DNA of 64,000 bases from Verrucomicrobiota bacterium (GTDB lineage Bacteria > Verrucomicrobiota > Verrucomicrobiia > Opitutales > Opitutaceae): positions 6,198 through 70,197 of the forward strand of contig JANNHA010000071.1 in NCBI GenBank assembly GCA_031404135.1. The letters are read 5' to 3'. Positions 30,804 through 51,526 of this stretch are shown here, one piece after another. The notes beneath the pieces are model-generated. The model had not been told where the DNA came from and searched no databases. It worked only from the letters and a program-made list of their open reading frames with translations. The position numbers and the translations under genes were made by a program. Numbering within the stretch: the first letter of the stretch is position 1; each line of letters opens with the position of its first letter.

Positions 30804-30808
30804 CTTTT

Positions 30809-30842: not shown

Positions 30843-30873
30843 CTTCAAAAGTGGCGCAGCAATTCCGAGGCCA

Positions 30874-31302: not shown

Positions 31303-31312
31303 GGGGGAAGAA

Positions 31313-31423
31313 AGTAGCGAGTAACGGGTAGTGAGGAGCGAGTAGGTCGGAGTGGCGAGAATGAGCGCTGCGTGTGTGCTTTTTGGTCGATGCTCGCTAC
31401 TCGCTGCTCATTACTCGCTACTA
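31313..31423. repeat. Inverted pair of heptamer arrays in the paaK-ACT gap
   Basis: Left arm AGTAGCGAGTAACGGGTAGTGAGGAGCGAGTAGGTCGGAGTGG. Right arm GATGCTCGCTACTCGCTGCTCATTACTCGCTACTA, overlapping the paaK stop. Same family as 29871-29965. Confidence 0.7.
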
Positions 31424-33240: not shown

Positions 33241-33253
33241 GGGGCGTGGCTCG

Positions 33254-35099: not shown

Positions 35100-36023
<924 letters not shown>

Positions 36024-36237
36024 GCGTGCGGCCGCTTGGCCAGGTAAGCCTTCCCGGGGTGGAGCAGCTTGACGCAAGATGCTTTCCGGGTGCCACGAAG
36101 GTCGAACCACCCTGTTTGTCATCCCGAGCGCTACGCGAGGGATCCACTTGGAATCGGTAAACCAGCACGTGCGACCTTACCCACTAAGCATGGGCAAAAC
36201 CTCAAACATTCGGGGGTGACTCCTTTTTCATTCTTAA

Positions 36238-36906
36238 TCAGGGAATGGGAATTAGATTGGCCAGTTGTATGTCGAGCTTTTTGAGTCCCGTCAGTATACG
36301 TGACCTAACGGTATTATATATGTCTTTGGGATTTGCAGCGAAGGTAATCTTGTTTCGTGACATGTGAGCAACATTTCCACGCATACCCCCAAATTCGTTC
36401 ATTGCTAAATTCCATTCATCATCGAGATCCTTATTTAATCGAATCGACAAAGGAACCAATAGCCACTTCAGGTTTTCCTCTTTGATGCCATTATTATTAC
36501 TTACAACTTTCAGATACTCCTGTAATGCCATATTTATCCGAGTTTCGACACCGACTTCATTGCACGGTTTCTTCAAATTCTCGGGTCTCTTCCCAAGTTC
36601 GGACCACTCACTAGCACAAATTGCATATAATGAAAACACAACCCTGCCGACAGACTGTTTTTTAGTGTATGCTTCAACTGAAGCTTTAGCGAGCTCTTGG
36701 CAAACCGTTTCAAGGTAATGCTCTATTTCCGCGTGGACTAGAACGATAAACCCGAGAGTCCTGTCCTCCCATTGCGGGTCAGATATGCCCGCAAATGGAT
36801 CATCTAAGTCTAAGGGCAATAAGTGCTTACGCAGAACAACGATTCTTCGCAGGAGTGAATAATATTGAGCGGAAACACTCATAGGTATTTCACTTCCCAA
36901 CCACAA
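36238..36906 (-). CDS. HEPN-domain protein (putative RNase effector)
   Basis: 222 aa in an AT-rich stretch. RGNVAH (Rx4H) about 40 residues from the C terminus. Overlaps the end of the DUF262 gene (alternative start MSVSAQ at 36882). Confidence 0.6.
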   Translation of the reverse strand: MWLGSEIPMSVSAQYYSLLRRIVVLRKHLLPLDLDDPFAGISDPQWEDRTLGFIVLVHAEIEHYLETVCQELAKASVEAYTKKQSVGRVVFSLYAICASEWSELGKRPENLKKPCNEVGVETRINMALQEYLKVVSNNNGIKEENLKWLLVPLSIRLNKDLDDEWNLAMNEFGGMRGNVAHMSRNKITFAANPKDIYNTVRSRILTGLKKLDIQLANLIPIP

Positions 36907-38113
36907 TTGGAGTAATATTCACACCAACGACCTTACTCAATGACGCTGCCCATGCGTGGAATCGATATCTAGTATTTTCCAGACTTTTCGTAGTGCTCTC
37001 AATAGACTCCATGAATCTCGTATCGTTAGTGCAAAGATCTTTATAGGCAGTCACCACAATTTCGGGTGTATCTGTCCACGCTTTATTAACAACTTGATTA
37101 TCAATATACGCAAGTAATACATCAAAGATCGCTCGATTGAAACGTTGCTCAAATTTTTCTCCGGTCCACTTTCCGTAATTATATTCGCTGTCCGAATCAG
37201 CAAAGGCTTTCCGGATCATTTCATCATTTCGGTCAAGCCGGCTAATTAATTCCAAGCAACGAGGTGCGTATGAAGCCCAATTGGCGTTAAGCTCTTTACA
37301 TGTTGAGTCGAGAAACAATTTCATGTTACCGATGTATCGATTCAGAAACAAATTAAATGCTATGTGCCTGATAACGAGCTCAACATCTCTCATTCTGAAA
37401 TCAGGTTTTGTTGAGTGAAGAATTCGTTTTATAGCTTTACTTGCCGTCGAATTTTCATCTGCAAAATCCACGAATGGTCCCGGATGAAGCGCCTGCCTTA
37501 GCTCCTGTGGCGAAAGTGGTTTGCTCCCCATATTCAGACGAATAAATACGTGAAACAATAGTGCCTCGTCCTTCCAATTCTTAATAATCACAGTCCTTAT
37601 TGGCTGGTTATCAAAAGCAGCGATCACGTCTGTGCAGGTCAGATCTTCACGCAGATCACTATAAGTCCTTCCATTTAAATCCTTCCTGATATCTAGGTTC
37701 CTCAAACTGAATACTGGAAAATCGGACGCTCCGTTATTTGATGTAAATTGCAGCAAGCATAGGAGTCTTTGCTTACCATCTAGCACGATGTACTTTCCAC
37801 GAGCATCCATACGCTCCGCCAAAACAATTTGGGGTACCGGTAAACCCAAAATCAATGATTCAATGAATCTACTTTTTCTGTCTAATTCCCACGCATCGCG
37901 TCGCTGAAATTTCGGGTTAAGTTCGATATTTCCCTTACGTAGTTGAGACAGAACGGTCTCAGTGGTCCAATCGGCACCGCCAACAGTGATGCTAGAAAAA
38001 ACTACGTTTCCCGCCAGAGTTATATCGGACTCTTCTTCAGATGTGCCTGTGATTTCTGAGAACTGTTGAGGATCATTCATTGAATGAATTATTAATGGTG
38101 GCTTTTGCGGCAA
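36890..38113 (-). CDS. DUF262 (ParB/Srx-like nuclease/NTPase fold) protein without a recognisable DUF1524/HNH half
   Basis: LNPKFQRRDAWELDRKSRFIESLILGLPVPQIVL and YIVLDGKQRLLCL (FQR / DGQQR motifs). TTG start at 38113 (alternative ATG at 38080). AT-rich. Confidence 0.8.
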   Translation of the reverse strand: MPQKPPLIIHSMNDPQQFSEITGTSEEESDITLAGNVVFSSITVGGADWTTETVLSQLRKGNIELNPKFQRRDAWELDRKSRFIESLILGLPVPQIVLAERMDARGKYIVLDGKQRLLCLLQFTSNNGASDFPVFSLRNLDIRKDLNGRTYSDLREDLTCTDVIAAFDNQPIRTVIIKNWKDEALLFHVFIRLNMGSKPLSPQELRQALHPGPFVDFADENSTASKAIKRILHSTKPDFRMRDVELVIRHIAFNLFLNRYIGNMKLFLDSTCKELNANWASYAPRCLELISRLDRNDEMIRKAFADSDSEYNYGKWTGEKFEQRFNRAIFDVLLAYIDNQVVNKAWTDTPEIVVTAYKDLCTNDTRFMESIESTTKSLENTRYRFHAWAASLSKVVGVNITPIVVGK

Positions 38114-38350
38114 ACAAAGGGGTGTTCATCTGGCTGGGTGCCAAAATGCAATAGGTGGCATCAAGTTGGAAGGCAAATTGTTCGGCCACGCTGAGGTGGA
38201 CTCCGTGACCAGTACCAGGGGATCGAGAGAGTTAGTTATGAGGTTCAGGTATGATTGGGAAGATAAAATAATTTTTAGGGAGGGGTGCAGGGAAGGGAGC
38301 TAGCTCTTTCCCCGCTCCTCCCGTCGCCGTTAGGCGGCATGTTTGGGGCG

Positions 38351-38395
38351 ATCCAAAAGGGCCAAACTTTGCACTTTGCACAAAGACCCTGCGGA
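38351..38395 (+). repeat. Direct repeat flanking hicBA, left copy
   Basis: ATCCAAAAGGGCCAAACTTTGCACTTTGCACAAAGACCCTGCGGA. Compare 39072-39128. Confidence 0.6.
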
Positions 38396-38606
38396 TGGAG
38401 CATATCTGCAGGAGAACTTGGTGCTCCTGACCAACCCGAGAATCAGGATGCTTAAGGACGTCCACCCCCGTACGGCACCGGCCAGGCTCACGTTCGACGT
38501 GTGCGAGCCGACCCAGCCAGGCGTGGAAAACGTCGAATGAGAGGCAGAACTTACAGAGGAAGAAGTCGAGCTTGCCGAGTAACTCTAGGACGATAGCTTT
38601 TTCCCC

Positions 38607-38825
38607 ATGAAGGAAATTATTTTTGAGGTACGCGAGGACGAGGCCGATGGCGGTTTTACCGCTGCGGCGCTCGGTCATGACATTTTTACTGAGGGCGACA
38701 CGATAGCGGAACTACGCGCCAATGTGCGCGGGGCGGTGCAGTGTCACTTTGGCGATGGCGTGCCCGGACCGTTGCCGCAAATGATCCGGCTGCATTTTGT
38801 GCGTGATGAAGTACTAGCGACATGA
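38607..38825 (+). CDS. hicB: HicB-like antitoxin (RNase-H-fold-only type)
   Basis: 72 aa. MKEIIFEVREDEADGGFTAAALGHDIFTEGDTIAELRANV. 4-nt overlap with hicA. Confidence 0.7.
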   Translation: MKEIIFEVREDEADGGFTAAALGHDIFTEGDTIAELRANVRGAVQCHFGDGVPGPLPQMIRLHFVRDEVLAT

Positions 38826-39557: not shown

Positions 39558-41009
39558 TCACAGCGGCAGGTTGATGCCGGCGAGCGACGTGGCGATGGCG
39601 TTCATGATCGGTTCAGGTGCGACGCCGAGCCAGATGATACCGATAATCAAGAGAACGCAGAGAATCTTGGTCGAGAGGTCGATGGAAAGGGATTCGGGAG
39701 CGGTGCCGTCGGAGACTTTTTCACCGAAGACGCTTTTGCGGACAACTTGGAGGTAATAATAAATGGCGATCGCGGAGTTGATCACAGTGATGATCACGAG
39801 GGCGAGGTGTCCCTTGGCGAAGGCGGCGGAGAGAAGGCCGAACTTGCCGATAAAGCCAACGAACGGAGGGATGCCCGCGAGGCCGAAGACGGCGACGACG
39901 AGCGTCAGGGCTAACAAGGGCGAGCGGCGGTGCAGGCCGGAGAGTTCTTCGATTTCGACGTTGGTGCCGTCTTTGGAGACTTTGCAGATGACGACGAAAC
40001 AGGCGGTGACCATCAGTAGGTATCCAACAATGTAGTACAGCGCGGCGGTGTAACCAGCGGTGTTCATGGCGGTGAAACCGACGACGGCGTAACCGGCGTG
40101 CGCGATGCCGGAGAAACCGAGCAGGCGTTTGAAATCTTTTTGGACGAGCGCGATCAGGTTGCCGTAGCACATCGAGAGGATGGCGAGGCCGCTGAGCAGC
40201 GTGGCGATCGAGTGATTATCCGGGGTGGCGAGCGAAACGAGGCGGACGAGCACGGCGACGGCGCCGACTTTGGGCAGCGAGGCGATGAAGCCGGCGGTTT
40301 CGTTGGAGGCGCCTTGGTAAACGTCGGGGGTCCAGAAGTGGAAGGGGAAGATGGCGAGTTTGTAGTAGAAACCGCAGAACGCCATCGAGAGGCCGACGAT
40401 CACGAGGGGCGTGCCTGCGATGGGAGCGAGCTTGGTGAACATTTCCGGCAGGTGCGTCGAGCCGGTGAGGCCGAACAGGTAGCTAAAACCAAAGAACATG
40501 ATGCCGTTGGCGGCGACGCCGAACATGACGTACTTGATGGCGGATTCCATTTGCACGCGTTGGCCGTCGCGCTCGCGGCGCATGGCGACCATCAGGTAGA
40601 GCGGGAACGACGAAAGTTCGAGGGCGATGATGAGCGAGAGCACTTCGACGCTGCTGACGAGCATTGTGAGGCCGAGTACGCTGAGGGTGAGGAAGAGGTA
40701 GTACTCGGCTTTGGTTTCTTGCCGGATGTCGGGTAGGTTGCCGCTGAGGAGAAGCACGAACAAGTAGCCAGCGCTCATGACGATCTTGAGCCATTGTGAG
40801 AAGGCATCGATGCGGTACGCGCCGTCAAAGAGGACCTTGCTTTCGGGAAGCGAAACGATGCTGGCACCGAGGGTGACAAGGGCGACGAAGATGGCACCGG
40901 CGCGAGCGGCTTTGCCCTGCTTTTCGCCGAGGGCGACGACGAAGAGGCCGAGTGCTCCGGCGAGGAGCACGAGCTCAGGGAAGAAGGCGAGGGCGGAGAA
41001 GGGAGTCAT
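39558..41009 (-). CDS. nuoN: NADH:quinone oxidoreductase-like complex, subunit N
   Basis: 483 aa, 14-TM antiporter-like. LELSSFPLYLMVAM and ESAIKYVMFGVAANGIMFFG, typical of NuoN. Last gene of the operon. Confidence 0.85.
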   Translation of the reverse strand: MTPFSALAFFPELVLLAGALGLFVVALGEKQGKAARAGAIFVALVTLGASIVSLPESKVLFDGAYRIDAFSQWLKIVMSAGYLFVLLLSGNLPDIRQETKAEYYLFLTLSVLGLTMLVSSVEVLSLIIALELSSFPLYLMVAMRRERDGQRVQMESAIKYVMFGVAANGIMFFGFSYLFGLTGSTHLPEMFTKLAPIAGTPLVIVGLSMAFCGFYYKLAIFPFHFWTPDVYQGASNETAGFIASLPKVGAVAVLVRLVSLATPDNHSIATLLSGLAILSMCYGNLIALVQKDFKRLLGFSGIAHAGYAVVGFTAMNTAGYTAALYYIVGYLLMVTACFVVICKVSKDGTNVEIEELSGLHRRSPLLALTLVVAVFGLAGIPPFVGFIGKFGLLSAAFAKGHLALVIITVINSAIAIYYYLQVVRKSVFGEKVSDGTAPESLSIDLSTKILCVLLIIGIIWLGVAPEPIMNAIATSLAGINLPL

Positions 41010-41052: not shown

Positions 41053-42531
41053 TTATTTCCCGACTTGTTGGAGGAGGTGGACGACGGATTCGTGCATGAT
41101 ATTCACGAAGGGCTGCGGGTTCAGGCCGATCCACACAACAAATACAAGCAAGGGTGTGAGCGTGAGGATCTCGCGGACGTTGAGATCGGCTGTGCCGGTG
41201 TGGTCGGGGTTGTCGGTGCCGCCGTAAACGAGGCGCTGGAGCATGCGGAGGTTATACGCTGCTGCGGCGACGACGCCGGGGATGGCGCAGAGCACGATGA
41301 CGGTGGAGGCTTTGAAACCGCCGGCGAGAACGAGGAATTCGCCGATGAAGCTGTTCGTGCCGGGGAAGCCGAGCGACGAGAGGCAGAAGACGCCGAGGAA
41401 CGTGGCGAGGATCGGCATCGTTTTGCCGATACCGGCTGATTTGGCGAGATCGCGGGTGTGTAGGCGTTCGTAGATAATGCCGACACAGATGAACAACGCG
41501 CCGGTGGTGACGCCGTGGTTGATCATGACGAGGGTGGCACCTTCGATGCCCTGGACGTTGAGGGCGAAAATGCCGAGGGTGCAGAAGCCCATGTGGCCTA
41601 CGGAGGAGTAGGCGACGAGTTTCTTCATGTCGCTTTGCGCGAGAGCGGCGAGGCCACCGTAAACGATACCGGCGACGGAGAGCCACATCAGCGCGGGTGA
41701 GAAATGCGTCGCGGCCCAAGGCGTGATCGGCAGCGCGAAACGCAGGAAACCGTAGGTGCCCATCTTCAGCAGCACGGAAGCGAGGATGACCGAACCAGCG
41801 GTTGGAGCCTCAACGTGCGCGGCGGGCAACCACGTGTGGAACGGGAACATCGGGACCTTGATCGCGAAAGAAATGAAGAACGCGGCGAAGACCCAGGTTT
41901 GGAAGCCGTGTGAGAACGCGTGGCCCATGGTCTCAGGCAGGTTGAATCCACCGGTTTGCAGGCGCAGCGCGATGATGGCGACGAGCAGGAAGACCGAGCC
42001 CGACATCGTGTAGATGAAGAACTTGATCGAGGCGTAGATTTTACGCGGGCCGCCCCAGACGCCGATCATGAGCGCCATCGGGATGAGCATCGATTCCCAG
42101 AACACGAAGAAGAGTACGGTATCGAGTGCGCTGAAGACGCCGATCATCGCCGACTCCATGACGAGGAGCGCGATCATGAACTCTTTGACGCGAACCTTGA
42201 TGTAGGTCCAAGAGGCAAGCACGCAGAGAGGCGTGATGAGTGTCGTGAGCAGGATGAGCAGCAGACTGATGCCGTCGATGCCGAGCGTGTAGTTGATTTT
42301 CAACCACGGAATCCACGCGTGGCTTTCACCGAACTGGAAGGCAGCGGTGCTGGCATCGAAGCCGATGTAAAGGTTGACCGAGAAGATCGCGGCGGCGGTG
42401 GTGAAGCCGAGGGTCCACCAGCGGACGAGTTTTTCGTCAGGCAGCAGTGCGCCGATCACGGCGGCGAGGAGCGGGGCGAAGATGAGGGTGCTGAGGAAGG
42501 GCAGGCCCTCGAGGGAGTCGATTATTGGCAT
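41053..42531 (-). CDS. nuoM: NADH:quinone oxidoreductase-like complex, subunit M
   Basis: 492 aa. LGIDGISLLLILLT and FWESMLIPMALMIGVWGGPRKIYASIKFFIYTMSGS, the NuoM signature. Confidence 0.9.
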   Translation of the reverse strand: MPIIDSLEGLPFLSTLIFAPLLAAVIGALLPDEKLVRWWTLGFTTAAAIFSVNLYIGFDASTAAFQFGESHAWIPWLKINYTLGIDGISLLLILLTTLITPLCVLASWTYIKVRVKEFMIALLVMESAMIGVFSALDTVLFFVFWESMLIPMALMIGVWGGPRKIYASIKFFIYTMSGSVFLLVAIIALRLQTGGFNLPETMGHAFSHGFQTWVFAAFFISFAIKVPMFPFHTWLPAAHVEAPTAGSVILASVLLKMGTYGFLRFALPITPWAATHFSPALMWLSVAGIVYGGLAALAQSDMKKLVAYSSVGHMGFCTLGIFALNVQGIEGATLVMINHGVTTGALFICVGIIYERLHTRDLAKSAGIGKTMPILATFLGVFCLSSLGFPGTNSFIGEFLVLAGGFKASTVIVLCAIPGVVAAAAYNLRMLQRLVYGGTDNPDHTGTADLNVREILTLTPLLVFVVWIGLNPQPFVNIMHESVVHLLQQVGK

Positions 42532-42543: not shown

Positions 42544-44349
42544 TTAGAAAATGAAGAGGTAAGCCAGGAGCAGCAGGGCGCTGAGGCCGAAGGCTGCGGT
42601 GAGATTTTGCTGGAGCGCACCGCGTTGGGCACCGCGCAATCGGGCACCAAAGTTACGAACGCCGGTGGCGAATCCGTCGACGATACCGTCGATCACGGCG
42701 CTGTCGAAAACGCCGACGAGGCGCGAGGTGCGCATGAGCGGGATCAGGCCGCCGGCGTTGTAGATTTCACCGACGAAGGTATCTACGGCTTGGATCGGTT
42801 TTTTGGCGAGCCAGAGGAAAGCGGGGCCGCCTTTGCGCCAGAGGATGTCGAGGTCGAGCGAGATCTTGGCCTCGGGCGTGAGTTTTTTCAGCATCAGGAA
42901 GAAGCCGAGCGCGGTGAAGAGGAGGATCTGCAATGTCTCCATCACGTGGTTCGTGTTGTACGGCTGATACGGATGCGCAAGCGTCTGAGGTAATTTGTCG
43001 TAGAGGTAGGGCGTGTAGCTGCCGATGAAGATACAGAGGAAGGCGGCGATGCCCATGGCCAACGTCATGTTCCAGACCGGGTCTTTGGCTTTCTCCCAAG
43101 TCGCAGGCTTGCAGTTGTTTTTTCCGAAGAAAATGTAGTAAGGAACCTTCAGACCGGTGTGTAGGAAGGTGCCGGCGGAGGCGAGCATGAGGAGGAAGCC
43201 GACCCAGAGCATGTGGCTGTCAAAGCCGGCCTGCACGATCATCGACTTCGAAACGAAACCACTGAAAAGCGGGAAAGCCGAGATGGAGAGACCGCCGATG
43301 AGCGTCAGGATGAACGTCAATGGCATCTTTTTGTAGAGGCCGCCCAGTTCGGTGAATTTGCTTTCGCCGGTCTGGTGGAGGACGGTGCCGCAGCCCATGA
43401 AGAGCAGGCCCTTGTAGAGAATGTGGGCGAAGGCGTGGGCGCAGACGCCGTTGAAGGCGAGGCGGCCGAAGTCGGTGTCGAGTTTGGCGAGGCCAACACC
43501 AGCGACCATGTAACCGACTTGAGAAATAACGTGGTAGGCGAGGAGGCGCCGGCTGTCGTTTTCGAGCACGGCGTAAACGACACCGTAGAGCGCCATGATG
43601 ACGCCGAGCGGGATTAAGATATCGAAACCGGGGACGCCGCGCAGGAGGGCGTACACGGCGGTTTTCGTGGTGAAGGCGCACATGAACACCGAACCATTGA
43701 AAGTCGCTTCACCGTAGGCGTCGGGCAACCAGGCGTGCAGCGGCGGAACAGCGGCGTTGAGGAGAAAGCCGATGGTGATCAACCACGTGCCAGCGGTAGG
43801 GCTGAGGACGTCGAGCGCGTTGAAGGCGAGGCTGCCGGTGGCGCGGTACGTCAGCATGATGCCGGCGAGGAGTGCGACACCCCCTGCCATGTGAACGAGC
43901 AAGTAGCGATAGCCCGCGGCACCGGAGCGGCTGCTTTTGCGGAACCAGATGAGGAACGTCGAGGCGATGGCCATGACTTCCCAGAAGAGGAAGAGCGTGA
44001 TGAAATCGCCGGCGTAGAGCGCGCCAATCGAACCAGCGACATAGGTCCAAGCGGCGATGTGCTCGGCGGCGCGTTTCACGTGCAGGCCGTAGAGCGTGCC
44101 GATAATCGCCATCAGGCCCATGATGTAGCCGAAGACTTGGCTGAGCGGATCGACACGGCCGAAGGTGAGCGCGATTTCCTTGGTGAAATGAATTTCGCCG
44201 AAGGTGCCCGAGTTCATCGTGACGATGCGGGCGAACGCCAGAATCGGGATAAGCAACAGCCAGCCTTTGCGAGCGGCTTGTGGGACAAGCGGGAGGAGAA
44301 CGGCGCCGATCAAAAAAATCAGCGAAGGGTGGATCCAGAGATCACTCAT
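42544..44349 (-). CDS. nuoL: Antiporter-like subunit with a NuoL/MrpA-type C-terminal lateral-helix segment
   Basis: 601 aa. MrpD/NuoN-like core (FLFWEVMAIASTFLIWF) plus C-terminal FDSAVIDGIVDGFATGVRNFGARLRGAQRGALQQNL followed by a final TM, the NuoL transverse-helix pattern. Confidence 0.65.
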   Translation of the reverse strand: MSDLWIHPSLIFLIGAVLLPLVPQAARKGWLLLIPILAFARIVTMNSGTFGEIHFTKEIALTFGRVDPLSQVFGYIMGLMAIIGTLYGLHVKRAAEHIAAWTYVAGSIGALYAGDFITLFLFWEVMAIASTFLIWFRKSSRSGAAGYRYLLVHMAGGVALLAGIMLTYRATGSLAFNALDVLSPTAGTWLITIGFLLNAAVPPLHAWLPDAYGEATFNGSVFMCAFTTKTAVYALLRGVPGFDILIPLGVIMALYGVVYAVLENDSRRLLAYHVISQVGYMVAGVGLAKLDTDFGRLAFNGVCAHAFAHILYKGLLFMGCGTVLHQTGESKFTELGGLYKKMPLTFILTLIGGLSISAFPLFSGFVSKSMIVQAGFDSHMLWVGFLLMLASAGTFLHTGLKVPYYIFFGKNNCKPATWEKAKDPVWNMTLAMGIAAFLCIFIGSYTPYLYDKLPQTLAHPYQPYNTNHVMETLQILLFTALGFFLMLKKLTPEAKISLDLDILWRKGGPAFLWLAKKPIQAVDTFVGEIYNAGGLIPLMRTSRLVGVFDSAVIDGIVDGFATGVRNFGARLRGAQRGALQQNLTAAFGLSALLLLAYLFIF

Positions 44350-44689
44350 TGTAGAAATCCTCCCGGGCCATGATCTCTGTGCGACCGACTTTCAGGTGTC
44401 CGTACCATTTGGATACGTAAACGATGATGGCACAGGCGATGAAACCGAAGACCGACCAGAAGACCGGAATCGTTTCGGCGATATGGTAAAGTTGGGCCCA
44501 GAAACCGTGCGCGGCTTCAGCGGCGTGGGCGGCGGGCGCAGCGTGTTCGGTCGCGGCGGCGGCGTGGCCGTGCGAAAGTAGTACGCGGGCAATGTCGGCG
44601 ACGACGAGGAGCGCGAGCAGGCCGATGCTGACCTTGATCACAAGGCCGAGCCGGTCGCGCAGAAAATCTATAAAGCGTACGAGGTTCAT
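44342..44689 (-). CDS. Small 2-TM protein with a His/Ala-rich loop, embedded in the nuo operon
   Basis: 115 aa. Ends overlap both neighbours (ATGA-type couplings). TM1 VIKVSIGLLALLVVADI, loop HGHAAAATEHAAPAAHAAEAAHG, TM2 IPVFWSVFGFIACAIIVYV. No family recognised. Confidence 0.5.
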   Translation of the reverse strand: MNLVRFIDFLRDRLGLVIKVSIGLLALLVVADIARVLLSHGHAAAATEHAAPAAHAAEAAHGFWAQLYHIAETIPVFWSVFGFIACAIIVYVSKWYGHLKVGRTEIMAREDFYNE

Positions 44690-46167
44690 CAGAATACCGC
44701 TTTCGCGAGGTTAAGGAAAAGGTCGGGCCAGAAACCGATGACGATGGAGATGACGGCCGTGATGCAGAGCGGGATGACCATCGAAGGATGGGCTTCGCCG
44801 TGGAGATGATGTTCGTCTTCGTGCGAGAGTTTACCGAAGAACGCGGTGTAAACGACGGGGGCGAAATACGCGGCGTTGAGGATCGTCGAAACGACGAGGA
44901 TCACGAGGATGCCGATCTGGCCGGCGTCCATCGAGCCGACGAGTAGGTAGATCTTGGATACGAAACCACCGGAGCCGGGCACGCCGATCATCGAGAGCGA
45001 GGCGAGAGCGAAGGCGCCAAAGGTGAACGGCATCACGCGACCGAGGCCGGACATTTCGGAAATGTCTTTTTTGTGGGTGGCGACGAAGATCGCGCCAGCG
45101 CAGAAGAACAGCGTGATCTTGGCGAAAGCGTGCGTGGCGATGTGGAGCAGGCCGCCTTCGACACCGGTCGGCGTGAGCAACGCGACACCGAGGACGATGT
45201 ACGAGAGTTGCGAGACGGTGGAGTAGGCGAGCCGGGCTTTGAGGTTGTCCTTTGAAAGCGCGATGACCGAACCAGCAAGAATCGTGAAGCCGACGAAGTA
45301 GGCGGTCGGGATGCCGAGGTTGAAGGCGTGCATCGTATCGACGCCGAAACCGTAGAGCATGACGCGCGTGGTGGAGAACACGCCGACCTTCACGACGGCG
45401 ACGGCATGGAGCAGCGCGGAGACGGGTGTCGGGGCGACCATGGCGCTCGGGAGCCACGAGTGGAACGGCATGATGCCGTTCTTCGCGAAGCCGAGGATGC
45501 AGGCGGCGTAGGCGCCGGTGACGAGCCAGCGGTTAGCGCCAGCGAGGCCAGCGATTCCGTCATGGACGTTAGTGGGAAAATCGAGCGAGCCAGTCAGTAC
45601 GTAGATGAGCACCATGGCCGGGAGCACGAGGCCCTTGGCGGTGGTGGTCAGGTAGGTCATGTACTTGCGGGCACCTTCGTAGCCCTCGGCGTCCTGATGG
45701 TGTCCAACGAGTGGATACGTGACGATCGAGACGACTTCATAGAAGAAGTACATCGTCAGGAGATTGTCGGAAAAGGCGCAACCGATGGCGCCGAAAAGCG
45801 AGAGCGCGAAGCAGGTGTTGAAGCGCGTCTGGTTCGGCTCGTGGTGACCGCGCATGTAGCCGGCCGAGTAAAACACGGCGAGCACCCAGAGGAGTGAGGC
45901 GGCGCCGGCGAAGATCATCGACATGGCGTCGGCGCGCAGCGTGAGGCTGAGGCCGGGCAGCAACTGGAACAGCGTGAACTTCAGCGTGTGTCCGGCTTTG
46001 ATTGCGGGATACATCGACGCGATGAGGCCGAACATCACCAGCGCGGCAATGACGGAGCAGGCTTCGCGCAGATTGGGTTTCTTGCCGGTCGCCATGACTG
46101 CGGCGGCACCGATGATCGGTGCGAGGATGGCGTAGAGCAGGCGTGGGTCGTGTTGAATCGTTTCCAT
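44689..46167 (-). CDS. Additional antiporter-like (NuoL/MrpA N-terminal-core-like, PF00361-type) subunit without a lateral helix
   Basis: 492 aa. LSLTLRADAMSMIF...FYSAGYMRGHHEPNQTRF...NLLTMYFFYEVVSIVTYPLVG resembles the NuoL/MrpA core (YSxGYM). It stops after about 14 TM helices. Confidence 0.7.
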   Translation of the reverse strand: METIQHDPRLLYAILAPIIGAAAVMATGKKPNLREACSVIAALVMFGLIASMYPAIKAGHTLKFTLFQLLPGLSLTLRADAMSMIFAGAASLLWVLAVFYSAGYMRGHHEPNQTRFNTCFALSLFGAIGCAFSDNLLTMYFFYEVVSIVTYPLVGHHQDAEGYEGARKYMTYLTTTAKGLVLPAMVLIYVLTGSLDFPTNVHDGIAGLAGANRWLVTGAYAACILGFAKNGIMPFHSWLPSAMVAPTPVSALLHAVAVVKVGVFSTTRVMLYGFGVDTMHAFNLGIPTAYFVGFTILAGSVIALSKDNLKARLAYSTVSQLSYIVLGVALLTPTGVEGGLLHIATHAFAKITLFFCAGAIFVATHKKDISEMSGLGRVMPFTFGAFALASLSMIGVPGSGGFVSKIYLLVGSMDAGQIGILVILVVSTILNAAYFAPVVYTAFFGKLSHEDEHHLHGEAHPSMVIPLCITAVISIVIGFWPDLFLNLAKAVF

Positions 46168-46171
46168 TGGC

Positions 46172-46498
46172 TCAGCCCTTCAGTTCGTTAAGATCCTTGG
46201 AGGCAATCGAGCGATAATTGCGGTACACGGCGATGATGATGCTGAGGGTGATGGCCACTTCGGCGGCGGCCAGGCCCATGATAAAGAGAACGGCGATCTG
46301 GCCGACGGATTGGTCGGGCGCGGTGAAACGGTTGAGCGCCATGAAATTCAACGACGCGGCGGCGAAGATGAGTTCGCCGGAGATCAGCATGCCGATGAGT
46401 GTGCGACGGCGAACCAGGCCGTAGATGCCCGTGGCGAGGAGGAAGGCGGCGACCACGAGGTACGCGGCGGGTTGGGTGTAAAGTTGGGCGGGGTTCAT
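46172..46498 (-). CDS. nuoK: NADH:quinone oxidoreductase-like complex, subunit K
   Basis: 108 aa, 3 TM. LISGELIFAAASLNFMAL and GLAAAEVAITLSIIIAVYR, typical of NuoK. Confidence 0.85.
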   Translation of the reverse strand: MNPAQLYTQPAAYLVVAAFLLATGIYGLVRRRTLIGMLISGELIFAAASLNFMALNRFTAPDQSVGQIAVLFIMGLAAAEVAITLSIIIAVYRNYRSIASKDLNELKG

Positions 46499-46512: not shown

Positions 46513-46613
46513 GCAGAATGATGAATGAAGAATGTAGAATGGTTTCGGCAGGCGGAGGGTTTTCGGTGGGTTGGTTTTCATTCTGCCTCCTTCATTCTGC
46601 CTTCTTCATTTTC
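46513..46613. repeat. Inverted pair of GAATG-type heptamer arrays in the nuoJ-nuoK gap
   Basis: Left arm CAGAATG ATGAATG AAGAATG TAGAATG (46514-46541). Right arm TTTTCATTCTGCCTCCTTCATTCTGCCTTCTTCATTTTC, which overlaps the last codons of nuoJ. Confidence 0.7.
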
Positions 46614-47144
46614 TTTAATTCTCCCGGAACGGGCGATCACGAGGGCGCCGAGGATGGCGACGAGGAGCACGAGCGAGATGAGTTCAAAGGGCACGCTGTA
46701 CGTGGTGAGCAGGCGGATGCCGATGTCTTTGACGGAGCCTTCGCTCACGAGGGTGGCGGGGGCCTGCCAGTTGCCGCTGAGGCTGAGTTTGGCGATGCCG
46801 AGAAATACACCAGCACCAATCGCCAGAGAAACGAGCGGCGCGATAACCGGGTACGGTTTGGTGAAGTTCTCGGGAGCGGCTTCGTCAGGTTCGGTGAGCA
46901 TGACACCGAAGATAATGGTCACGCAAACGGCGCCGATATAGATCAGGATTTCCATCAGCGCGAGGAACGGGCTGTTGAGGAAATAGAAAAGGCCGGCGAG
47001 GCCGAGGGAGGCGATGGCGAGGCCGCACACGCTGCGAATAATGCGCTTGGTGCAGGCGGCGATGAGCGCGCCCGTAACTGTGATGGCGATACAACCGATG
47101 AAAATGGCGGCGACGATCCAGTCGGAGAAAGGGAAGGCGTTCAT
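46578..47144 (-). CDS. nuoJ: NADH:quinone oxidoreductase-like complex, subunit J
   Basis: The start MNAFPFSDW at 47144 makes an ATGA overlap with the nuoI stop. FLALMEILIYIGAVCVTIIFGVML is the NuoJ core. The ORF is open to 47321. Confidence 0.8.
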   Translation of the reverse strand: MNAFPFSDWIVAAIFIGCIAITVTGALIAACTKRIIRSVCGLAIASLGLAGLFYFLNSPFLALMEILIYIGAVCVTIIFGVMLTEPDEAAPENFTKPYPVIAPLVSLAIGAGVFLGIAKLSLSGNWQAPATLVSEGSVKDIGIRLLTTYSVPFELISLVLLVAILGALVIARSGRIKENEEGRMKEAE

Positions 47145-47713
47145 GGCTGGGAGCTGGGAGCTGGGAGCGAGGAGCTCGGAGACGGAATGGCTGCGGCTGG
47201 TTCGGCTGCGGGCGAAGCGGCGGGGGCGGCGACTGCGGCGGGGGCGTAAGGATCGTAGGGCGTTTTGCCGACGCGGGTAACCTGGTCTTTGTAGCGTTGG
47301 ACGAGGTCCATGTTGGCCCATTGGTTCGGCAAGCTGGCCAGGTTGTAGCGATTCGAATGTTGGATCGCGTCAAACGGGCAGGCTTCGATGCAGAGTGAAC
47401 AGAGCGAGCAAAGTGTGTAGTCGAGTTTGTAGCTAGTGACGGTTTTGCCTTTTTCGCCGGCGGGCTTGATGCCGTCGAGCACGATGCAGTCGGACGGGCA
47501 GGCTTTGGCGCAGAGGTTGCACGCGGTGCAGTTGGGTTTGCCGGTTTCTTCGTTCCACTTCAGCTCGATGTGGCCACGGAACTTCTTCGCGATCGTCAGC
47601 GTCTGGTGCGGATAGTGCGTGGTTATGGTCGGGCTGAAGAATTGCTTGATCGTGATCGTCAGACCCGTGAGGAGAGACAGGAACCCGGAGAATGTTTCGG
47701 TGACGAGATTCAT
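47141..47713 (-). CDS. nuoI: NADH:quinone oxidoreductase-like complex, subunit I (2x[4Fe-4S])
   Basis: CTACNLCAKACP and CSLCSLCIEACP ferredoxin motifs. Unusual Pro/Ala/Ser-rich C-terminal tail. Confidence 0.9.
   Translation of the reverse strand: MNLVTETFSGFLSLLTGLTITIKQFFSPTITTHYPHQTLTIAKKFRGHIELKWNEETGKPNCTACNLCAKACPSDCIVLDGIKPAGEKGKTVTSYKLDYTLCSLCSLCIEACPFDAIQHSNRYNLASLPNQWANMDLVQRYKDQVTRVGKTPYDPYAPAAVAAPAASPAAEPAAAIPSPSSSLPAPSSQP
47145..47186. repeat. In-frame heptamer array (GGCTGGG AGCTGGG AGCTGGG AGCGAGG AGCTCGG AGACGGA) at the nuoI 3' end
   Basis: Six 7-nt units encode the tail ...SPSSSLPAPSSQP. The reverse complement resembles the CTCGCTCC arrays inside rhs. Confidence 0.65.
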
Positions 47714-47719: not shown

Positions 47720-48826
47720 TTAGAAAAGGCGGGGCAGTTTGAGCGTCACGCTCGTGAGGAGCAGCGTGAGCAGGGAGAGCGGAATCAGGATCTTCCAGGA
47801 AAGGTTGAGCAGGCCGTAGAATTGCGTGCGGGGGAAAGTCCAGCGGACCCAAACCACGCTAAAGATCAGGAAATACATTTTGAAGAAGAAGCAGAGGACG
47901 CCGATCAGCGTGCCCCAGATTCCCAATGAGCTTAGGTGCGTGCCGACCCATGGGCCCAGGCCGCTCTGCCAGCCGCCGAGGAAGAGGAGCGTCGCGAGCG
48001 CGCAACCGACGACGATGTTGGCGTACTCGGCCATGAAGAAAACGCCGAAGCCCATGCCGCCGTATTCGGTGAAGGCACCGGCGACGAGTTCGCTCTCGGC
48101 TTCGGCCATGTCGAAGGGAGCGCGGTTCGTTTCGGCCAGCATGCAGATGTAGAAAATGAGGAACGTGATTGGCGCGAAAATGTTGCCGCCGATATGACCC
48201 CAGCCGCCACCGCTAAAGTCCCAAATGCCACGGAGAATATTCCAGTTCCAGAAACCGCCGCCTTGTTGAACGATGATTTCCTGGAGGTTCAACGTGCCGG
48301 TGACCATGATCATGGTGATCACGACGAGCAGCATGGGGATTTCGTAGGCGACGTTTTGCGAAACGACGCGGGCTGCGGAGATGATCGCGTATTTGTTGCG
48401 CGAGGCCCAGCCACCGAGCATGAGCGCCATCACATTGATAGAGCCAAAAGAGAACACCATCAATAGGCCGATGTTGAGATCGCGAGCGAGGACGTTGTCG
48501 CCAAACGGAATCGCGGCGAGGCACACGAGCGGCGGCGCGATGACCATGAGCGGTGCGGCCCAGAAAAGGATTTTGTCGCTGCCCGGAGGTGCCATCAGCT
48601 GTTTCGAAAGGAGCTTGATGCCGTCGGCGGGCGGCTGGAGCAGGCCTGCCCAACCGGATTCAGTTGGACCGGGGCGGCGTTGGAAACGGCCGGCGCCTTT
48701 GCGCTCGACCCACACGAGGTAGGCAGCGTTGGCGGCGACGAAACCGCAGATGCCTAGGAGGTAGATAAGGCTCCGGCTCAGTACGCCCCAAGGTGTGGCA
48801 AAGAAGTGGGTAAGGCTTTCGATCAT
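47720..48826 (-). CDS. nuoH: NADH:quinone oxidoreductase-like complex, subunit H
   Basis: 368 aa polytopic protein. WVERKGAGRFQRRPGP and NRAPFDMAEAESELVAG, the NuoH signatures. Confidence 0.9.
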   Translation of the reverse strand: MIESLTHFFATPWGVLSRSLIYLLGICGFVAANAAYLVWVERKGAGRFQRRPGPTESGWAGLLQPPADGIKLLSKQLMAPPGSDKILFWAAPLMVIAPPLVCLAAIPFGDNVLARDLNIGLLMVFSFGSINVMALMLGGWASRNKYAIISAARVVSQNVAYEIPMLLVVITMIMVTGTLNLQEIIVQQGGGFWNWNILRGIWDFSGGGWGHIGGNIFAPITFLIFYICMLAETNRAPFDMAEAESELVAGAFTEYGGMGFGVFFMAEYANIVVGCALATLLFLGGWQSGLGPWVGTHLSSLGIWGTLIGVLCFFFKMYFLIFSVVWVRWTFPRTQFYGLLNLSWKILIPLSLLTLLLTSVTLKLPRLF

Positions 48827-48856: not shown

Positions 48857-49984
48857 TTAGCGATCGATGTCGGGGATGACGAGGTCGAGGCTGGCCATTA
48901 GGGAAATCGCGTCGGCGAGCATCATGCCTTGCGAGGCTTCCTCGAAGAGCGACAGGTTGGTGAAACACGGTGTGCGCAGGCGGATGCGGTAGGCTTCTTC
49001 TTTGCCGTCGCTGGTGATGCGTATGAGCAGGCGACCACGGCCGCACTCGGTGGCGAAACAAGTGTCACCGACAGGAAGTTTTAGCACGCGCGGCACTTTG
49101 CCCTGGAACGGACCTTCGGGGATCTTCGCGCAGGCTTGCTCGATGATGCGGAGGGATTGCTCAATCTCATCCATGCGGACGAGGTAGCGGGCGAGCGAGT
49201 CGCACTCGTTGTAGACAGGGATGTCGAAGTCGAACTGGTTGTAGATCGAGTACGGTTCGGCTTTGCGGACGTCGTAGTTGACGCCGGAGCCGCGCAGGAC
49301 CGGGCCGCAGGCGCCGTATTTGCGGCACATCTCGGCGCTGATCGGGCCGATGCCTTCGACGCGTTTGCGGAAGATGATATTTCCGGTGACGAGCTTTTTG
49401 TACATTTTCATGCGTTTGCGCATGTAGGGTACAAAGGCTTTGGAGCCGTCGATAAAATCCTGATCAACGTCATCGCACACGCCGCCGAAACGGTAGTAGC
49501 AATACGTCAGGCGCGAGCCGGTGATCGCTTCGAGCAGATCGAGAATTTTCTCGCGATCATCGAATGCGTACAGGATCGGGGTGAAACCGCCGAGATCCAT
49601 GATCCACGCGCCCCAACCGACGAGATGGCTGGAGATACGGTTGAGTTCGGAAGTGATGACGCGGATGTACTCGGCGCGGAGCGGGACTTCGATTTTGGCG
49701 GCTTTTTCCACGGCACCGACGAAGGCGTGCGTGTAAGTCATGGCCGAGAGGTAATCGATGCGGCTCGTGTTAGGCAGGTACTGCGCGTAGGTGCGGTTTT
49801 CGCCCATCTTTTCGTGCATGCGGTGGATGTAGCCGGGCACGGGCTGGGCGTTGACGATGAACTCGCCGTCCATCTCGAGCTTCACGCGCAACACGCCGTG
49901 GGTCGCGGGATGTTGCGGCCCCAGATTGATCGTGAACGTTTCGGCGGAAGGATCGCCGACGGGAATGAGCTTGGGGATGTTCAC
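48857..49984 (-). CDS. nuoD: NADH:quinone oxidoreductase-like complex, subunit D
   Basis: 375 aa. NLGPQHPATHGVLRV near the N terminus and C-terminal DLVIPDIDR. Confidence 0.9.
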   Translation of the reverse strand: MNIPKLIPVGDPSAETFTINLGPQHPATHGVLRVKLEMDGEFIVNAQPVPGYIHRMHEKMGENRTYAQYLPNTSRIDYLSAMTYTHAFVGAVEKAAKIEVPLRAEYIRVITSELNRISSHLVGWGAWIMDLGGFTPILYAFDDREKILDLLEAITGSRLTYCYYRFGGVCDDVDQDFIDGSKAFVPYMRKRMKMYKKLVTGNIIFRKRVEGIGPISAEMCRKYGACGPVLRGSGVNYDVRKAEPYSIYNQFDFDIPVYNECDSLARYLVRMDEIEQSLRIIEQACAKIPEGPFQGKVPRVLKLPVGDTCFATECGRGRLLIRITSDGKEEAYRIRLRTPCFTNLSLFEEASQGMMLADAISLMASLDLVIPDIDR

Positions 49985-50655
49985 GCTTTGAAATCCTTTA
50001 ACAACGGGTGGTAGGTGGCATCGTCAGGCAACATGAAAGGCGAGAGGTCGCGGTGGCCAATGAAGTCGATGCCGAAAAAGTCGTGGGTCTCGCGCTCGTG
50101 CCAGTCAGCGCCGGGGAAAACTTTAGAGATAGTGGCTATCTTTGGATCGTTGCGCGCGATGCGGGCGCGATAGGCGACGCGTTCGCCGGTCTGGAAATGG
50201 AGAAAATCGTAGATGACTTCGAGCAGGCCCTGAGTTGGCCAGTCCATGCCGGTGACGGCGTCGATGGCGTAACCGGCGCGATCCATGATTTCTGCGGCGG
50301 CGACGACGTGGGCGGGTTCGACGGTGACTTCGAGATGCAGCCCCTTGTCCTCGAATTTCCAGATTTGTACTGGTTTTGGAAGAGGCGGAGGTGGCGCGAC
50401 CGGAGCGGGGGCGGGCTTCGCGGCGGCGGGTTTAGGTGCAGGCGCTGGAGCGGCGGGAGCGGCGGACGGCCCGGCAGGGACGGCGACGGAGCGGCTCGAC
50501 GCGAGGTCGAGCCCTACGACGGAGGGCGCAGCGGGAGCGGCGGCGGGTTTTGGCGCTGGCGCAGGTTTCGGGACGAGCGCGGGCGGCAGCTGGACCATCT
50601 CTTTGACGGCCAGCGGCTCGAATTCTTTGGCGAGTTGTTCGATGGAGCTGCTCAT
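49981..50655 (-). CDS. nuoC: NADH:quinone oxidoreductase-like complex, subunit C, with a Pro/Ala-rich N-terminal extension
   Basis: C-terminal 120 aa is NuoC-like ([22 protein letters not shown]). The N-terminal 100 aa or so is low-complexity [11 protein letters not shown]-type sequence. Confidence 0.8.
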
Positions 50656-51152
50656 GGCATTTCGACGGTGGGCCAGCGGCGTTTGCCGGTGAGCTTTTTC
50701 TCAAGTTCAATGATGCCCTCGATCAAGGCTTCGGGGCGGGGCGGGCAGCCGGGGACGTACACGTCGACGGGGAAAAGTTTATCCACGCCTTCGACGACGG
50801 AATATTGGCCAGGATAGACGAACGGGCCACCGGAGATGGCGCAGTTGCCCATGGCGATGACCCATTTTGGCTCTAGCATCTGGTCATAGAGCGTCTTGAT
50901 AGCGGGGGCCATTTTCTTGTTGACCGTGCCGGCGACGATCATGACGTCGGCCTGACGGGGAGAGGGGCGAAAGACTTCGGCGCCGAAGCGCGAGAGGTCG
51001 AAACGGGCCATGCCGGTGGACATCATTTCGATGGCGCAACAGGCGAGACCGAAAGTGAGGGGCCAGAGCGAATTCGCGCGCCCGAGGGCGAGCAGATCGT
51101 CGAGCATCGCAAATTTTACGATTTGCGAGGTGTCGGGTTGCGTCGTGTCCAT
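50652..51152 (-). CDS. nuoB: NADH:quinone oxidoreductase-like complex, subunit B
   Basis: [28 protein letters not shown] and PGCPPRPE (N2 cluster ligands). The ATG at 51152 is preferred. The ORF is open to 51236. Confidence 0.9.
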
Positions 51153-51526
51153 GTGAAGACTCCTTTTTTCCAGGCGTAAATGATTACCAGTGATAACGTC
51201 CCTGTGAACATCGCGACTTCCACGAGATCGCGCCATTCGAAGACGCGGTTGTAGACGAGAGCGACGGGGATAAGATAAAGTACATCAACGGCGAAGGCTA
51301 CGAAGACCAGCGCATAGAGGTAGTAGACGGCGCTATAGCGGATCCAGGCGTCGCCGATCGGTTCGACGCCGCATTCGATGAACTGGCCGGTTTTGTTCGC
51401 CGTCTGACGGGTCGTGTTGCGAGGAGCCAGGAAGAACACGAGTACGAAGGGGCCGGCCGCGAACACCAGTCCGCCTAACGCGAACAATACCACGTAGATG
51501 AGATCTCCTGATAGGGTTTCGTTCAT
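51116..51526 (-). CDS. nuoA: NADH:quinone oxidoreductase-like complex, subunit A
   Basis: 3-TM protein. [13 protein letters not shown] and [18 protein letters not shown]. Start MNETLSG at 51526. The ORF is open to 51634. Confidence 0.85.

Follow-up and report, generated by a model that had tools for sequence, protein, structure and literature searches.

A 64,000-nucleotide stretch of a Verrucomicrobiota genome (Opitutaceae; assembly GCA_031404135.1, contig JANNHA010000071.1, positions 6,198 to 70,197), called the window here, carries a 13-gene operon on its minus strand in the order nuoA-B-C-D-H-I-J-K-D1-x-D2-M-N. The DNA comes from a freshwater-sediment metagenome, and its nearest relatives carry the names Nibricoccus or Opitutaceae. 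The three genes between nuoK and nuoM are of particular interest. An earlier note on this DNA had described them as an antiporter-like protein of 492 residues (D1), a His/Ala-rich membrane protein of 115 residues (x) and a second antiporter-like protein of 601 residues (D2). All three open reading frames (ORFs) lie where they had been placed, on the minus strand and flanked by nuoK and nuoM, and each has the motifs quoted for it: D1 contains YSAGYM and YFFYEVVS, x contains HGHAAAATEHAAPAAHAAEAAHG and D2 contains VIDGIVDGFATGVRNFGARL. The claim that every junction is a gap or overlap of 4 nt or less was slightly overstated: nuoK and D1 are separated by 4 nt and D1 and x overlap by 1 nt (TGATG), but x and D2 overlap by 8 nt (ATGAGTGA) and a 12-nt gap separates D2 from nuoM. 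A Pfam search finds PF00361 in D1, D2, NuoM and NuoN, the four subunits of this family that had been announced, and PF00662, the NuoL/MrpA-type N-terminus, in D1 alone. The operon in the window holds no nuoE, nuoF or nuoG, and its ORF list and Pfam matches include neither mrpE/F/G/B nor the MrpA C-terminal domain. We propose, with a probability of roughly 0.78, that its product is a quinone reductase resembling complex I, with the D1-x-D2 cassette in place of NuoL and so with the membrane arm of a green complex I.

Sequence comparison makes D1 a member of the L/A class (that of NuoL and MrpA), but not simply NuoL. D1 passes the NCBIfam model NF006236 (PRK08375.1-1) with 780 bits against a cutoff of 663, whereas the NuoL models TIGR01974 and NF005141, with cutoffs of 407 and 556, give it 212-225 bits; it is also far below the NuoM cutoff. 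Its best matches in the PDB are NdhF, NuoL, MbhH and MrpA (120-144 bits), with NuoM and NuoN lower (80-95 bits). The alignment covers residues 15-477 of the 629-residue NuoL and stops at the end of the core of 14 transmembrane (TM) helices, so that D1 has no lateral helix. In a neighbour-joining tree (415 columns, 200 bootstraps), D1 orthologues fall inside the NuoL/MrpA/Hyf/MbhH clade. The references of this tree were E. coli NuoL, NuoM and NuoN, HyfB, HyfD and HyfF, and MbsH', MrpA and MbhH sequences, Mrp references being few. The NuoM and NuoN of the window pass, or come close to passing, the NCBIfam models of these subunits; in the tree NuoM groups with E. coli NuoM (bootstrap 99), NuoN with E. 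coli NuoN (100), and D1 and D2 each form a clade with their Sinorhizobium meliloti counterparts (99-100). When all sequences were aligned to the numbering of E. coli NuoL to read the key residues, D1 was found to have the TM5 Glu, the TM7 Lys, His and Lys in TM8 (as in MrpA), His/His/Lys in TM11 and the TM12 Lys, as well as a Lys at the position of NuoL D178. The PDB alignment, the tree and these residues all agree with the NuoL/MrpA-class core lacking a lateral helix that had been suggested for the 492-residue protein.

D2 passes a different NCBIfam model, NF009310 (PRK12668.1, "Na(+)/H(+) antiporter subunit D"), with 718.4 bits against a cutoff of 564; the same two NuoL models give it 153-163 bits, and it too is far below the NuoM cutoff. 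Its best PDB match is MbsH' of the Pyrococcus MBS complex (6u8y_X, 138.7 bits), followed by MrpA and MbhH, and its orthologues form a clade of their own that is sister to MbsH' (bootstrap 69). Judged from these scores, D2 is not a NuoM paralogue and has an Mrp/MbsH'-like core, and the tree answers both phylogenetic questions raised by the earlier note: the 492-residue protein is not simply NuoL, and the 601-residue protein does not derive from NuoM.

The C-terminus of D2 is of the NuoL kind. D2 and Thermus Nqo12 match over residues 103-596 and 111-602, respectively (494 and 492 residues, as match spans only), which reach near both C-termini. In the AlphaFold2 model of D2, whose mean predicted local distance difference test (pLDDT) score is 76.7, with 85-95 in the core and low values at the C-terminus, TM15 lies at residues 466-488 and is followed by a nearly continuous helix at 509-600. 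We read the latter as a predicted lateral helix (HL) of about 70 residues, to about residue 579, and then the terminal TM16. The top full-length Foldseek matches of the model all bear a lateral helix (MrpA, NuoL, NdhF, HycC and MbsH'), and the C-terminal 134 residues, taken by themselves, resemble the NdhF model NF005633 in its lateral helix and TM16, although weakly (E 3.8e-4). The corresponding region of a D2 from one of the Mrp-type operons described below had no match to NF005633, and a phmmer search of the PDB with the C-terminus alone returned nothing for either kind of D2. An alignment of D2 orthologues from Opitutaceae, Desulfobacterota and S. meliloti is free of indels in the helix region, and D2 orthologues extend for 227-235 residues beyond the TM12 lysine to their C-terminus, 13-21 more than the 214 of E. 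coli NuoL. The proposed measurement of helix length therefore gives about 70 residues in the model, and the D2 helix would have roughly the length of that of canonical NuoL. A lateral helix of canonical length ties together three antiporter-like subunits, not four (PMC8165549). The PDB matches, the AlphaFold2 model, the Foldseek matches and the NdhF profile all support the earlier picture of a non-NuoL core joined to a lateral helix and a final TM helix. Apart from this, D2 of the window carries a 6-residue insertion at residues ~286-296 (43450-43500; AKLDTDFGRL as compared with G.....L), in the loop before TM10/11, when judged against four orthologues (O. terrae, S. meliloti, L002 and L004).

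The charged residues set D2 apart from the other three subunits. D1, NuoM and NuoN are canonical at all pump positions (TM5 Glu, TM7 Lys, central TM8 Lys/His and TM12 Lys/Glu). D2 keeps the TM5 Glu (E124), the TM8 Lys (K229), H305/H309/K313 and the TM12 Lys (K368), but at the position of the TM7 lysine, K229 in E. coli NuoL and K217 in MbsH', it has Asn198. This asparagine is found in 84 of 85 D2 orthologues, the remaining sequence not having matched the search motif, and also in the D2 of an Mrp-type operon (L087) and in that of a cytochrome c-linked cluster (L090). Every reference examined (NuoL, NuoM, NuoN, HyfB, HyfD, HyfF, MbsH', MrpA and MbhH) has the lysine. In current models the TM5 glutamate and the TM7 lysine form a pair that gates the passage of a signal between modules. 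Part of this gate model is stated in PMC8165549. With asparagine in place of the lysine, D2 may not pump independently and may instead be a rewired relay that serves D1. For the design with two MrpD subunits the literature infers "5 H+ per 2 e-", a figure that is consequently unproven, and one extra proton is not assured. The earlier idea of four pump modules thus holds as far as the four PF00361 subunits are concerned, and may overstate the number of pumps, given that D2 lacks the TM7 lysine.

The small ORF x evolves as a protein-coding gene and keeps constant company with D1 and D2. Among 28 gap-free orthologues of 83 residues the median ratio of nonsynonymous to synonymous substitution rates (dN/dS) is 0.16 at a dS of about 1.4, which points to purifying selection. 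A synteny survey of the kind that the earlier note had proposed found x between D1 and D2 in all 77 loci that hold both genes. Together with the overlaps at its two ends, these results bear out the suggestion that x is real, conserved and translationally coupled. The family has 76 close homologues and, in a library of 1.84 billion proteins, 199 clusters at 50% identity; a profile of distant members brings in 2289 clusters at 90% identity. Members usually have 82-87 residues, the 115-residue form of the window being the longest of 82. The consensus begins with M.LV.LIEFLR.RLK, a positively charged amphipathic N-terminus, and continues with TM1, ending in LLVV.D, a loop DKEHAHT..E..P and the segment GFW..FGF..C...SK.GH.GIMTREDYYDE; its invariant motifs extend from Opitutaceae to Sinorhizobium. 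In the window, x likewise has an N-terminal amphipathic helix, TM1, a variable His/Ala loop (residues 40-62), TM2 and an acidic REDFYNE tail. The N-terminal tail has a mean net charge of +2.5 with 4.2 Lys/Arg and the loop a mean of -0.9, so that by the positive-inside rule both termini would be cytoplasmic and the loop would lie on the outer face.

No relative of x outside its own family was found: x has no match in Pfam, NCBIfam or the PDB, and its profile returned noise alone from the PDB and from a permissive Pfam search. Profile-profile comparison with NuoA, NuoJ, NuoK, the termini of D1 and the C-terminus of D2 gave nothing above a probability of 19%, and on this basis the ideas that x is the split-off TM15/TM16 of a NuoL-like ancestor, or a paralogue of NuoK or NuoJ, were rejected. 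None of the x-profile matches proved to be x naturally fused to D1 or D2; the one candidate for a D1-x fusion (P0282) was dismissed as a frameshifted read-through, and two long matches (P0198 and P0239) were set aside as low-complexity artefacts.

The His/Ala-rich loop, after which the earlier note had characterized the protein, is not a feature of the family. The additional residues of the window (SHGH-AAAATEHAAPAAHAAEAA-HGFWAQLYHIAE) are inserted in the loop and are absent from the usual forms of 82-87 residues, including those of S. meliloti and Opitutus terrae. The insertion is hypervariable in length among close relatives, is confined to one sub-lineage of Opitutaceae, is disordered in the AlphaFold2 model and is encoded by a GC-rich, weak 9/18-nt tandem repeat (44506-44567). 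Loop expansions rich in His, Glu and Ala also occur in unrelated branches of the family (P0248, P0259 and P0281). Sequence of this kind is tolerated, or perhaps favoured, at the site. The NuoC of the window has a Pro/Ala-rich N-terminal extension (~90 residues) and its NuoI an Ala/Pro/Ser-rich C-terminal tail (~40 residues), low-complexity additions that resemble the loop of x and suggest a tendency of the whole lineage. In the closest relative (L005, whose D2 is 94% identical) the x frame is broken inside the GC-rich His/Ala stretch, and the C-terminus of the deposited protein (P0073) is garbled. This is probably an assembly error, since the break lies inside the repetitive GC-rich loop and the contig, which is named "tig...", possibly comes from a long-read assembly.

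The arrangement is widespread. A D2 alignment was used to scan one genome per species of the GTDB, and the ORFs of all loci were labelled by phmmer. At least 561 species genomes hold a confirmed D2 relative. The best 80 come mostly from Verrucomicrobiota (Opitutaceae, Limisphaerales and subdivision 3) and Desulfobacterota (Desulfobulbales, Desulfurivibrionaceae, Desulfocapsa and Desulfovibrio), with a single metagenome-assembled genome of Acidobacteriota. Nearly all complete related loci have the order A-B-C-D-H-I-J-K-D1-x-D2-M-N, and two loci reached through distant x homologues hold the same 13 genes. The cultured Opitutus terrae PB90-1 (CP001032.1, about 911.6-924.1 kb) has the operon as well, with an 82-residue x. 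In the related loci examined, the operons have two MrpD-like PF00361 genes and no canonical nuoL, and genes resembling nuoE, nuoF or nuoG lie nearby in only 4 of them. In soil and sediment metatranscriptomes, contigs of relatives with 85-95% identity together cover the operon from one end to the other, and both ends of x are among the parts covered.

D1, x and D2 also occur together outside complex I and thus form a portable cassette that is independent of the redox module. Six loci of the Desulfobulbus/Desulfocapsa type (L048, L058, L061, L063, L067 and L070) have the variant order nuoK-nuoM-D1-x-D2-nuoN, so that the cassette has moved as a unit. In a Nitrospirota (L087, 4233-12029) and a Marinimicrobia (L088, 4279-12023) locus the cassette ends an operon with the order MnhE-MrpF-MrpG-MbhD/E-MnhB-MrpC-MrpD (~505 residues)-D1-x-D2, in which no Nuo redox genes were found; compared with the window, these orthologues score about 480 bits for D1 and 550-580 bits for D2. 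An Omnitrophica locus (L090, 979-5113) has D1-x-D2 followed by a cytochrome c gene, and its D2, of 504 residues, ends after TM15 and has neither lateral helix nor TM16. This cluster may be related to the oxidase-linked MrpD pairs ("TO_2") of Ca. Manganitrophus. That x accompanies D1 and D2 whatever the redox module, and with or without a lateral helix, is the chief ground for supposing that it acts at the D1-D2 pair or holds the two together. One may go further and suppose that x is an unrecognised obligatory third part of a portable cassette that serves in Mrp, complex I-like and cytochrome c contexts, and that D2 is a lysine-less non-canonical module; this extension is tentative, and we would not quite back it at even odds.

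In the enzyme that we propose, the products of D1, x and D2 would assemble into the membrane arm, which would then have four antiporter-like modules. D1 would be a pump core of the NuoL/MrpA class, and D2 would supply TM15, the lateral helix and the anchoring TM16. With a helix of about NuoL length, D2 would tie together three of the modules and not all four. The small protein x would be a stoichiometric subunit that holds or couples D1 and D2, with its positively charged amphipathic N-terminus on the cytoplasmic side and its His-containing loop outside. D2 itself might pass charge on to D1 without being a canonical pump. Two orders of the subunits can be imagined. In the order N-M-D2-D1 (model A), the helix would cover M and N as in canonical NuoL, and x would tether the uncovered distal D1. 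L-class subunits are terminal in known structures, and both the L-class nature of D1 and the NdhF-like C-terminus of D2 favour this order. In the order N-M-D1-D2 (model B), the helix would cover D1 and M. Model B is favoured by the Mrp-type operons, which have exactly three antiporter-like subunits and a TM15-TM16 linker of similar length (~95 compared with ~90 residues), suggesting that D2 is terminal there. Both models fit the 26-residue insertion in the corresponding Manganitrophus subunit.

Four other readings of the locus have to be weighed. That the cassette moves Na+, or exchanges Na+ and H+, within the same architecture, which would make the enzyme a quinone reductase coupled to sodium or assisted by antiport rather than a five-proton pump, is unlikely. 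Such an activity would fit a cassette that is shared with Mrp-type antiporter operons, whose D2 has a non-canonical set of charges (TM7 Lys to Asn), and whose D2 has its closest solved relative, MbsH', in the Na+-linked MBS complex. The Na+ path of Mrp, MBH and MBS has, however, been assigned to a module of small subunits (the MrpA C-terminal domain with MrpB, C, E, F and G, or MbsA-C, D and G) and not to the antiporter-like subunits (PMC8165549), and this module is absent from the operon. Decidedly less likely is that D1-x-D2 forms an independent Mrp-like cation/proton antiporter, merely co-transcribed with a complex I that lacks L. Databases do label D1 and D2 as Na+/H+ antiporter subunit D, and the same cassette stands in Mrp-type operons beside MnhE, MrpF, MrpG, MbhD/E, MnhB and MrpC. 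Yet the window has no mrpE/F/G/B genes, and in most related loci the cassette occupies the position between nuoK and nuoM where nuoL is normally found (in six loci it follows K-M instead), in operons without a canonical nuoL. A complex without D2 would have no lateral helix, and it is the D2 of the Nuo context, and not that of the Mrp context, whose C-terminus matches the lateral helix and TM16 of NdhF. Moreover, the helix of Ca. Manganitrophus MrpD2 is 26 residues longer when a second NuoM is present (PMC9040806), which implies contact with NuoM/NuoN.

We regard as very improbable the suggestion that x is a spurious or non-functional frame between D1 and D2. It draws on the lack of Pfam, NCBIfam and PDB matches, on the low-complexity His/Ala stretch with its weak DNA repeat, on the low-confidence AlphaFold2 model and on the broken frame in the closest relative, which looks like an assembly error. 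It would have to account for the presence of x in 77 of 77 D1-D2 loci from different phyla, as well as in the Mrp-type and cytochrome c-linked clusters, for conservation at the amino-acid level (the dN/dS given above), for motifs that are invariant from Opitutaceae to Sinorhizobium, and for overlaps with the neighbouring genes of the kind seen in translationally coupled genes. Scarcely credible, finally, is a complex I of the 2M type, with a duplicated NuoM and a NuoL helix elongated across four pumps, even if there are four PF00361 genes in one nuo operon. The operon has a single NuoM and a single NuoN, D1 and D2 both fall outside the NuoM group, and each of these two passes an equivalog model of its own while staying far below the NuoL and NuoM cutoffs. 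The spans of the match between D2 and Thermus Nqo12 are nearly equal (494 and 492), and the predicted lateral helix has about 70 residues. As the earlier note had supposed, the arrangement is thus not of the 2M type: D2 lies outside NuoM, and no helix insertion of 2M size was found, in a comparison that did not include a 2M NuoL.

Several points nevertheless weigh against the replacement of NuoL by D1-x-D2 as we have drawn it. That D1, x and D2 would belong to one complex is deduced from their genes, and the helix-length argument would fit either order of the subunits. The missing TM7 lysine speaks against simply counting D2 as a fourth proton pump. AlphaFold2 models x by itself as a helical hairpin of low confidence (pLDDT 62; helices at 3-12, 14-39, 63-73 and 77-96). 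The metatranscriptome contigs are unstranded, come from relatives and may contain DNA; what they show is limited to the transcription of operons of this kind in nature. As for the electron input, nuoEF(G)-like genes stand beside the operon in some relatives (L011, L024 and S. meliloti), the window is 64 kb of a genome in which nuoEFG or another input module could lie elsewhere, and the link to ferredoxin comes from gene neighbourhood.

With these reservations, the electron donor of the enzyme is probably reduced ferredoxin or another carrier that is not NADH, as in NDH-1 enzymes without the N module, because the operon has no nuoEFG and has ferredoxin-linked neighbours both in the window and in O. 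terrae. In the window these neighbours form a cluster downstream of nuoN (Table 1); in O. terrae a 2-oxoacid:ferredoxin oxidoreductase lies directly upstream of nuoA. Such oxidoreductases adjoin the operon in a few other Opitutaceae loci too, and genes resembling NfnB/GltD are near it in eight Verrucomicrobial loci, that of the window included. In two related metagenomic loci (L091, 15258-15965; L092, 15248-15952), nuoN is directly followed by a gene for a 235-residue protein that has only the 4Fe-4S domain of NuoF (PF10589), a candidate for an alternative electron-input subunit of an enzyme without the N module.

Table 1. Genes and features of the operon and of its ferredoxin-linked neighbourhood, with positions counted from the first nucleotide of the window.
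Feature	Position	Strand	Basis and remarks
nuoA	51116..51526	-	ORF; start uncertain, ORF reaches 51634; orthologous position and length (~136 aa) in related loci
nuoB	50652..51236	-	ORF; start probably internal, giving ~167 aa; orthologues of 165-176 aa in related loci
nuoC	49981..50655	-	Translation and operon position; Pro/Ala-rich N-terminal extension of ~90 aa
nuoD (49-kDa subunit)	48857..49984	-	Translation: GPQHPATHGVLR near N-terminus, ...PDIDR at C-terminus
nuoH	47720..48826	-	ORF and orthologous position in related loci
nuoI	47141..47713	-	Two CxxCxxCxxxCP motifs; Ala/Pro/Ser-rich C-terminal tail
nuoJ	46578..47144	-	Start taken at MNAFPF; ORF runs further upstream
nuoK	46172..46498	-	PF00420, E 1.2e-19; NuoK NCBIfam model NF004320 above cutoff
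D1 ("MrpD1"), 492 aa	44689..46167	-	Antiporter-like subunit of NuoL/MrpA class by sequence; 14 TM helices, no lateral helix
x, 115 aa	44342..44689	-	Small two-TM membrane protein, conserved
His/Ala-rich loop of x, residues 40-62	44504..44572	-	Low-complexity, lineage-specific insertion
D2 ("MrpD2"), 601 aa	42544..44349	-	Antiporter-like subunit with predicted TM15, lateral helix HL (~509-579) and TM16; Asn198 at position of TM7 lysine
nuoM	41053..42531	-	Canonical, TM12 Glu; TIGR01972, 604 bits
nuoN	39558..41009	-	Canonical; TIGR01770, 340 bits (cutoff 332.6)
IorA (indolepyruvate:ferredoxin oxidoreductase)	34951-33254		Ferredoxin-linked neighbour cluster
IorB (indolepyruvate:ferredoxin oxidoreductase)	33312-32758		Ferredoxin-linked neighbour cluster
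Phenylacetate-CoA-ligase-like gene	32761-31421		Same neighbour cluster (window 28405-34951)
NfnA/NfnB-like pair	30803-29961 and 29859-28405		Ferredoxin-linked neighbour cluster

The product of nuoD is without the cysteine motifs of a [NiFe] site and is therefore a true NuoD, not a hydrogenase large subunit. PF00507 was found at the position equivalent to nuoA in two related loci (L002 and L004). Elsewhere in the window, a low-GC island at ~36000-38700, downstream of nuoN (0.44 compared with ~0.59), holds a restriction endonuclease of the GmrSD/DUF262 type (38113-36890) and, at 36906-36238 and 38678-38232, two ORFs that Pfam does not recognise. The island was probably inserted and serves in defence. 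Low GC recurs at 26-28 kb, in a stretch that likewise has two ORFs without a Pfam match. The window also encodes a 1786-residue RHS-repeat protein (11613-16973), CheA (2390-4600) and a DUF1549/DUF1553 protein (5637-7379).

These observations may bear on complex I and Mrp antiporters beyond this locus. The design with two MrpD subunits is far wider than "certain rhizobia", being found in hundreds of species of Verrucomicrobiota, Desulfobacterota and other groups, mostly without the NADH module. Structural and stoichiometric models of complex I and of Mrp should include x, the constant companion of D1 and D2. D2 lacks the TM7 lysine that is central to coupling models, which makes the assumed extra proton testable. 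Both Opitutus terrae PB90-1 and S. meliloti have been cultured and could serve to examine these points. Should x prove obligatory and D2 truly be a lysine-less module, the figure of 5-6 ions per 2 electrons published for the Manganitrophus enzyme and for green complex I would have to be revised, and the cassette would offer a natural experiment in the chaining and coupling of antiporter modules.

Of the known enzymes that share part of this design, the N-module-less NDH-1 of cyanobacteria and chloroplasts, with its 11-subunit core, has the A, B, C, D, H, I, J, K, M and N set in common with the window and likewise no NuoEFG with the core. It keeps a single NdhF (NuoL), however, and has ferredoxin-binding accessory subunits of its own, none of which was identified in the window. 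MbsH', which with MbsH belongs to the archaeal sulfane reductase MBS (PDB 6u8y), carries TM15, HL and TM16 as D2 does, but keeps the TM7 lysine (K217) where D2 has Asn198. We know of no x-like gene in an mbs or mbx operon. By gene order, L087 and L088 resemble irregular Mrp operons of "group 3", which contain several genes for MrpD (Ito et al. 2017, PMC5703873). They carry the small subunits E, F, G and B, unlike the operon of the window, and the C-terminal helix region of their D2 is unrelated in sequence to that of D2 in the Nuo context. The 2M complex I of Nitrospira and others (Chadwick et al. 2018), as far as it is described in PMC9040806, has a fourth antiporter-like subunit like the enzyme of the window; there it is a duplicate of NuoM, present beside a genuine NuoL whose helix is lengthened, whereas here NuoL is absent and the additional subunits are of the Mrp type. 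In Complex_I_3, from Ca. Manganitrophaceae (Yu et al. 2022, PMC9040806), NuoL gives way to two MrpD-like subunits, as in the window, and MrpD2 bears the amphipathic helix HL. The Manganitrophus complex has two NuoM, five pumps in all and a 26-residue insertion in the MrpD2 helix (PMC9040806); the window has a single NuoM, and its D2 and that of rhizobia align over the helix region without an indel.

The closest likeness is to the rhizobial enzyme. [quoted passage not shown] In the nuo2 cluster of S. meliloti pSymA, nuoJ and nuoK are followed by a "monovalent cation/H+ antiporter subunit D family" protein (487 residues), a hypothetical protein (84 residues), a "Na(+)/H(+) antiporter subunit D" (586 residues), nuoM and nuoN, a nuoK-D1-x-D2-nuoM-nuoN block identical to that of the window. 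The earlier view that the arrangement is different from those described has therefore to be given up. A tblastn search of plasmids found relatives of D2 on megaplasmids of Sinorhizobium, Rhizobium and Ensifer, with ~50% identity over 96-97% of the length. The x of S. meliloti is 34% identical to that of the window and shares its motifs, although with 84 residues it has no His/Ala loop; the rhizobial D2 shares the TM7 asparagine, and the rhizobial D1 has the full charged set. On pSymA nuoN is followed by nuoA-G, with nuoI and nuoH on the other strand, so that the rhizobial cluster is rearranged (J-K-D1-x-D2-M-N-A-B-C-D-E-F-G) and includes nuoEFG, whereas the window has the canonical order without nuoEFG. 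This difference concerns the input module and the gene order, not the membrane arm. On these comparisons the locus is an Opitutaceae member of the published green complex I class (MrpD1/MrpD2 type), and ordinary within its lineage. The texts consulted, which do not include the primary accounts of 2016 and 2018, make no mention of x, of the cassette in Mrp operons or of a D2 without the lysine. The universal small subunit x, the occurrence of the cassette in Mrp-type operons and the lysine-less D2 may be new.

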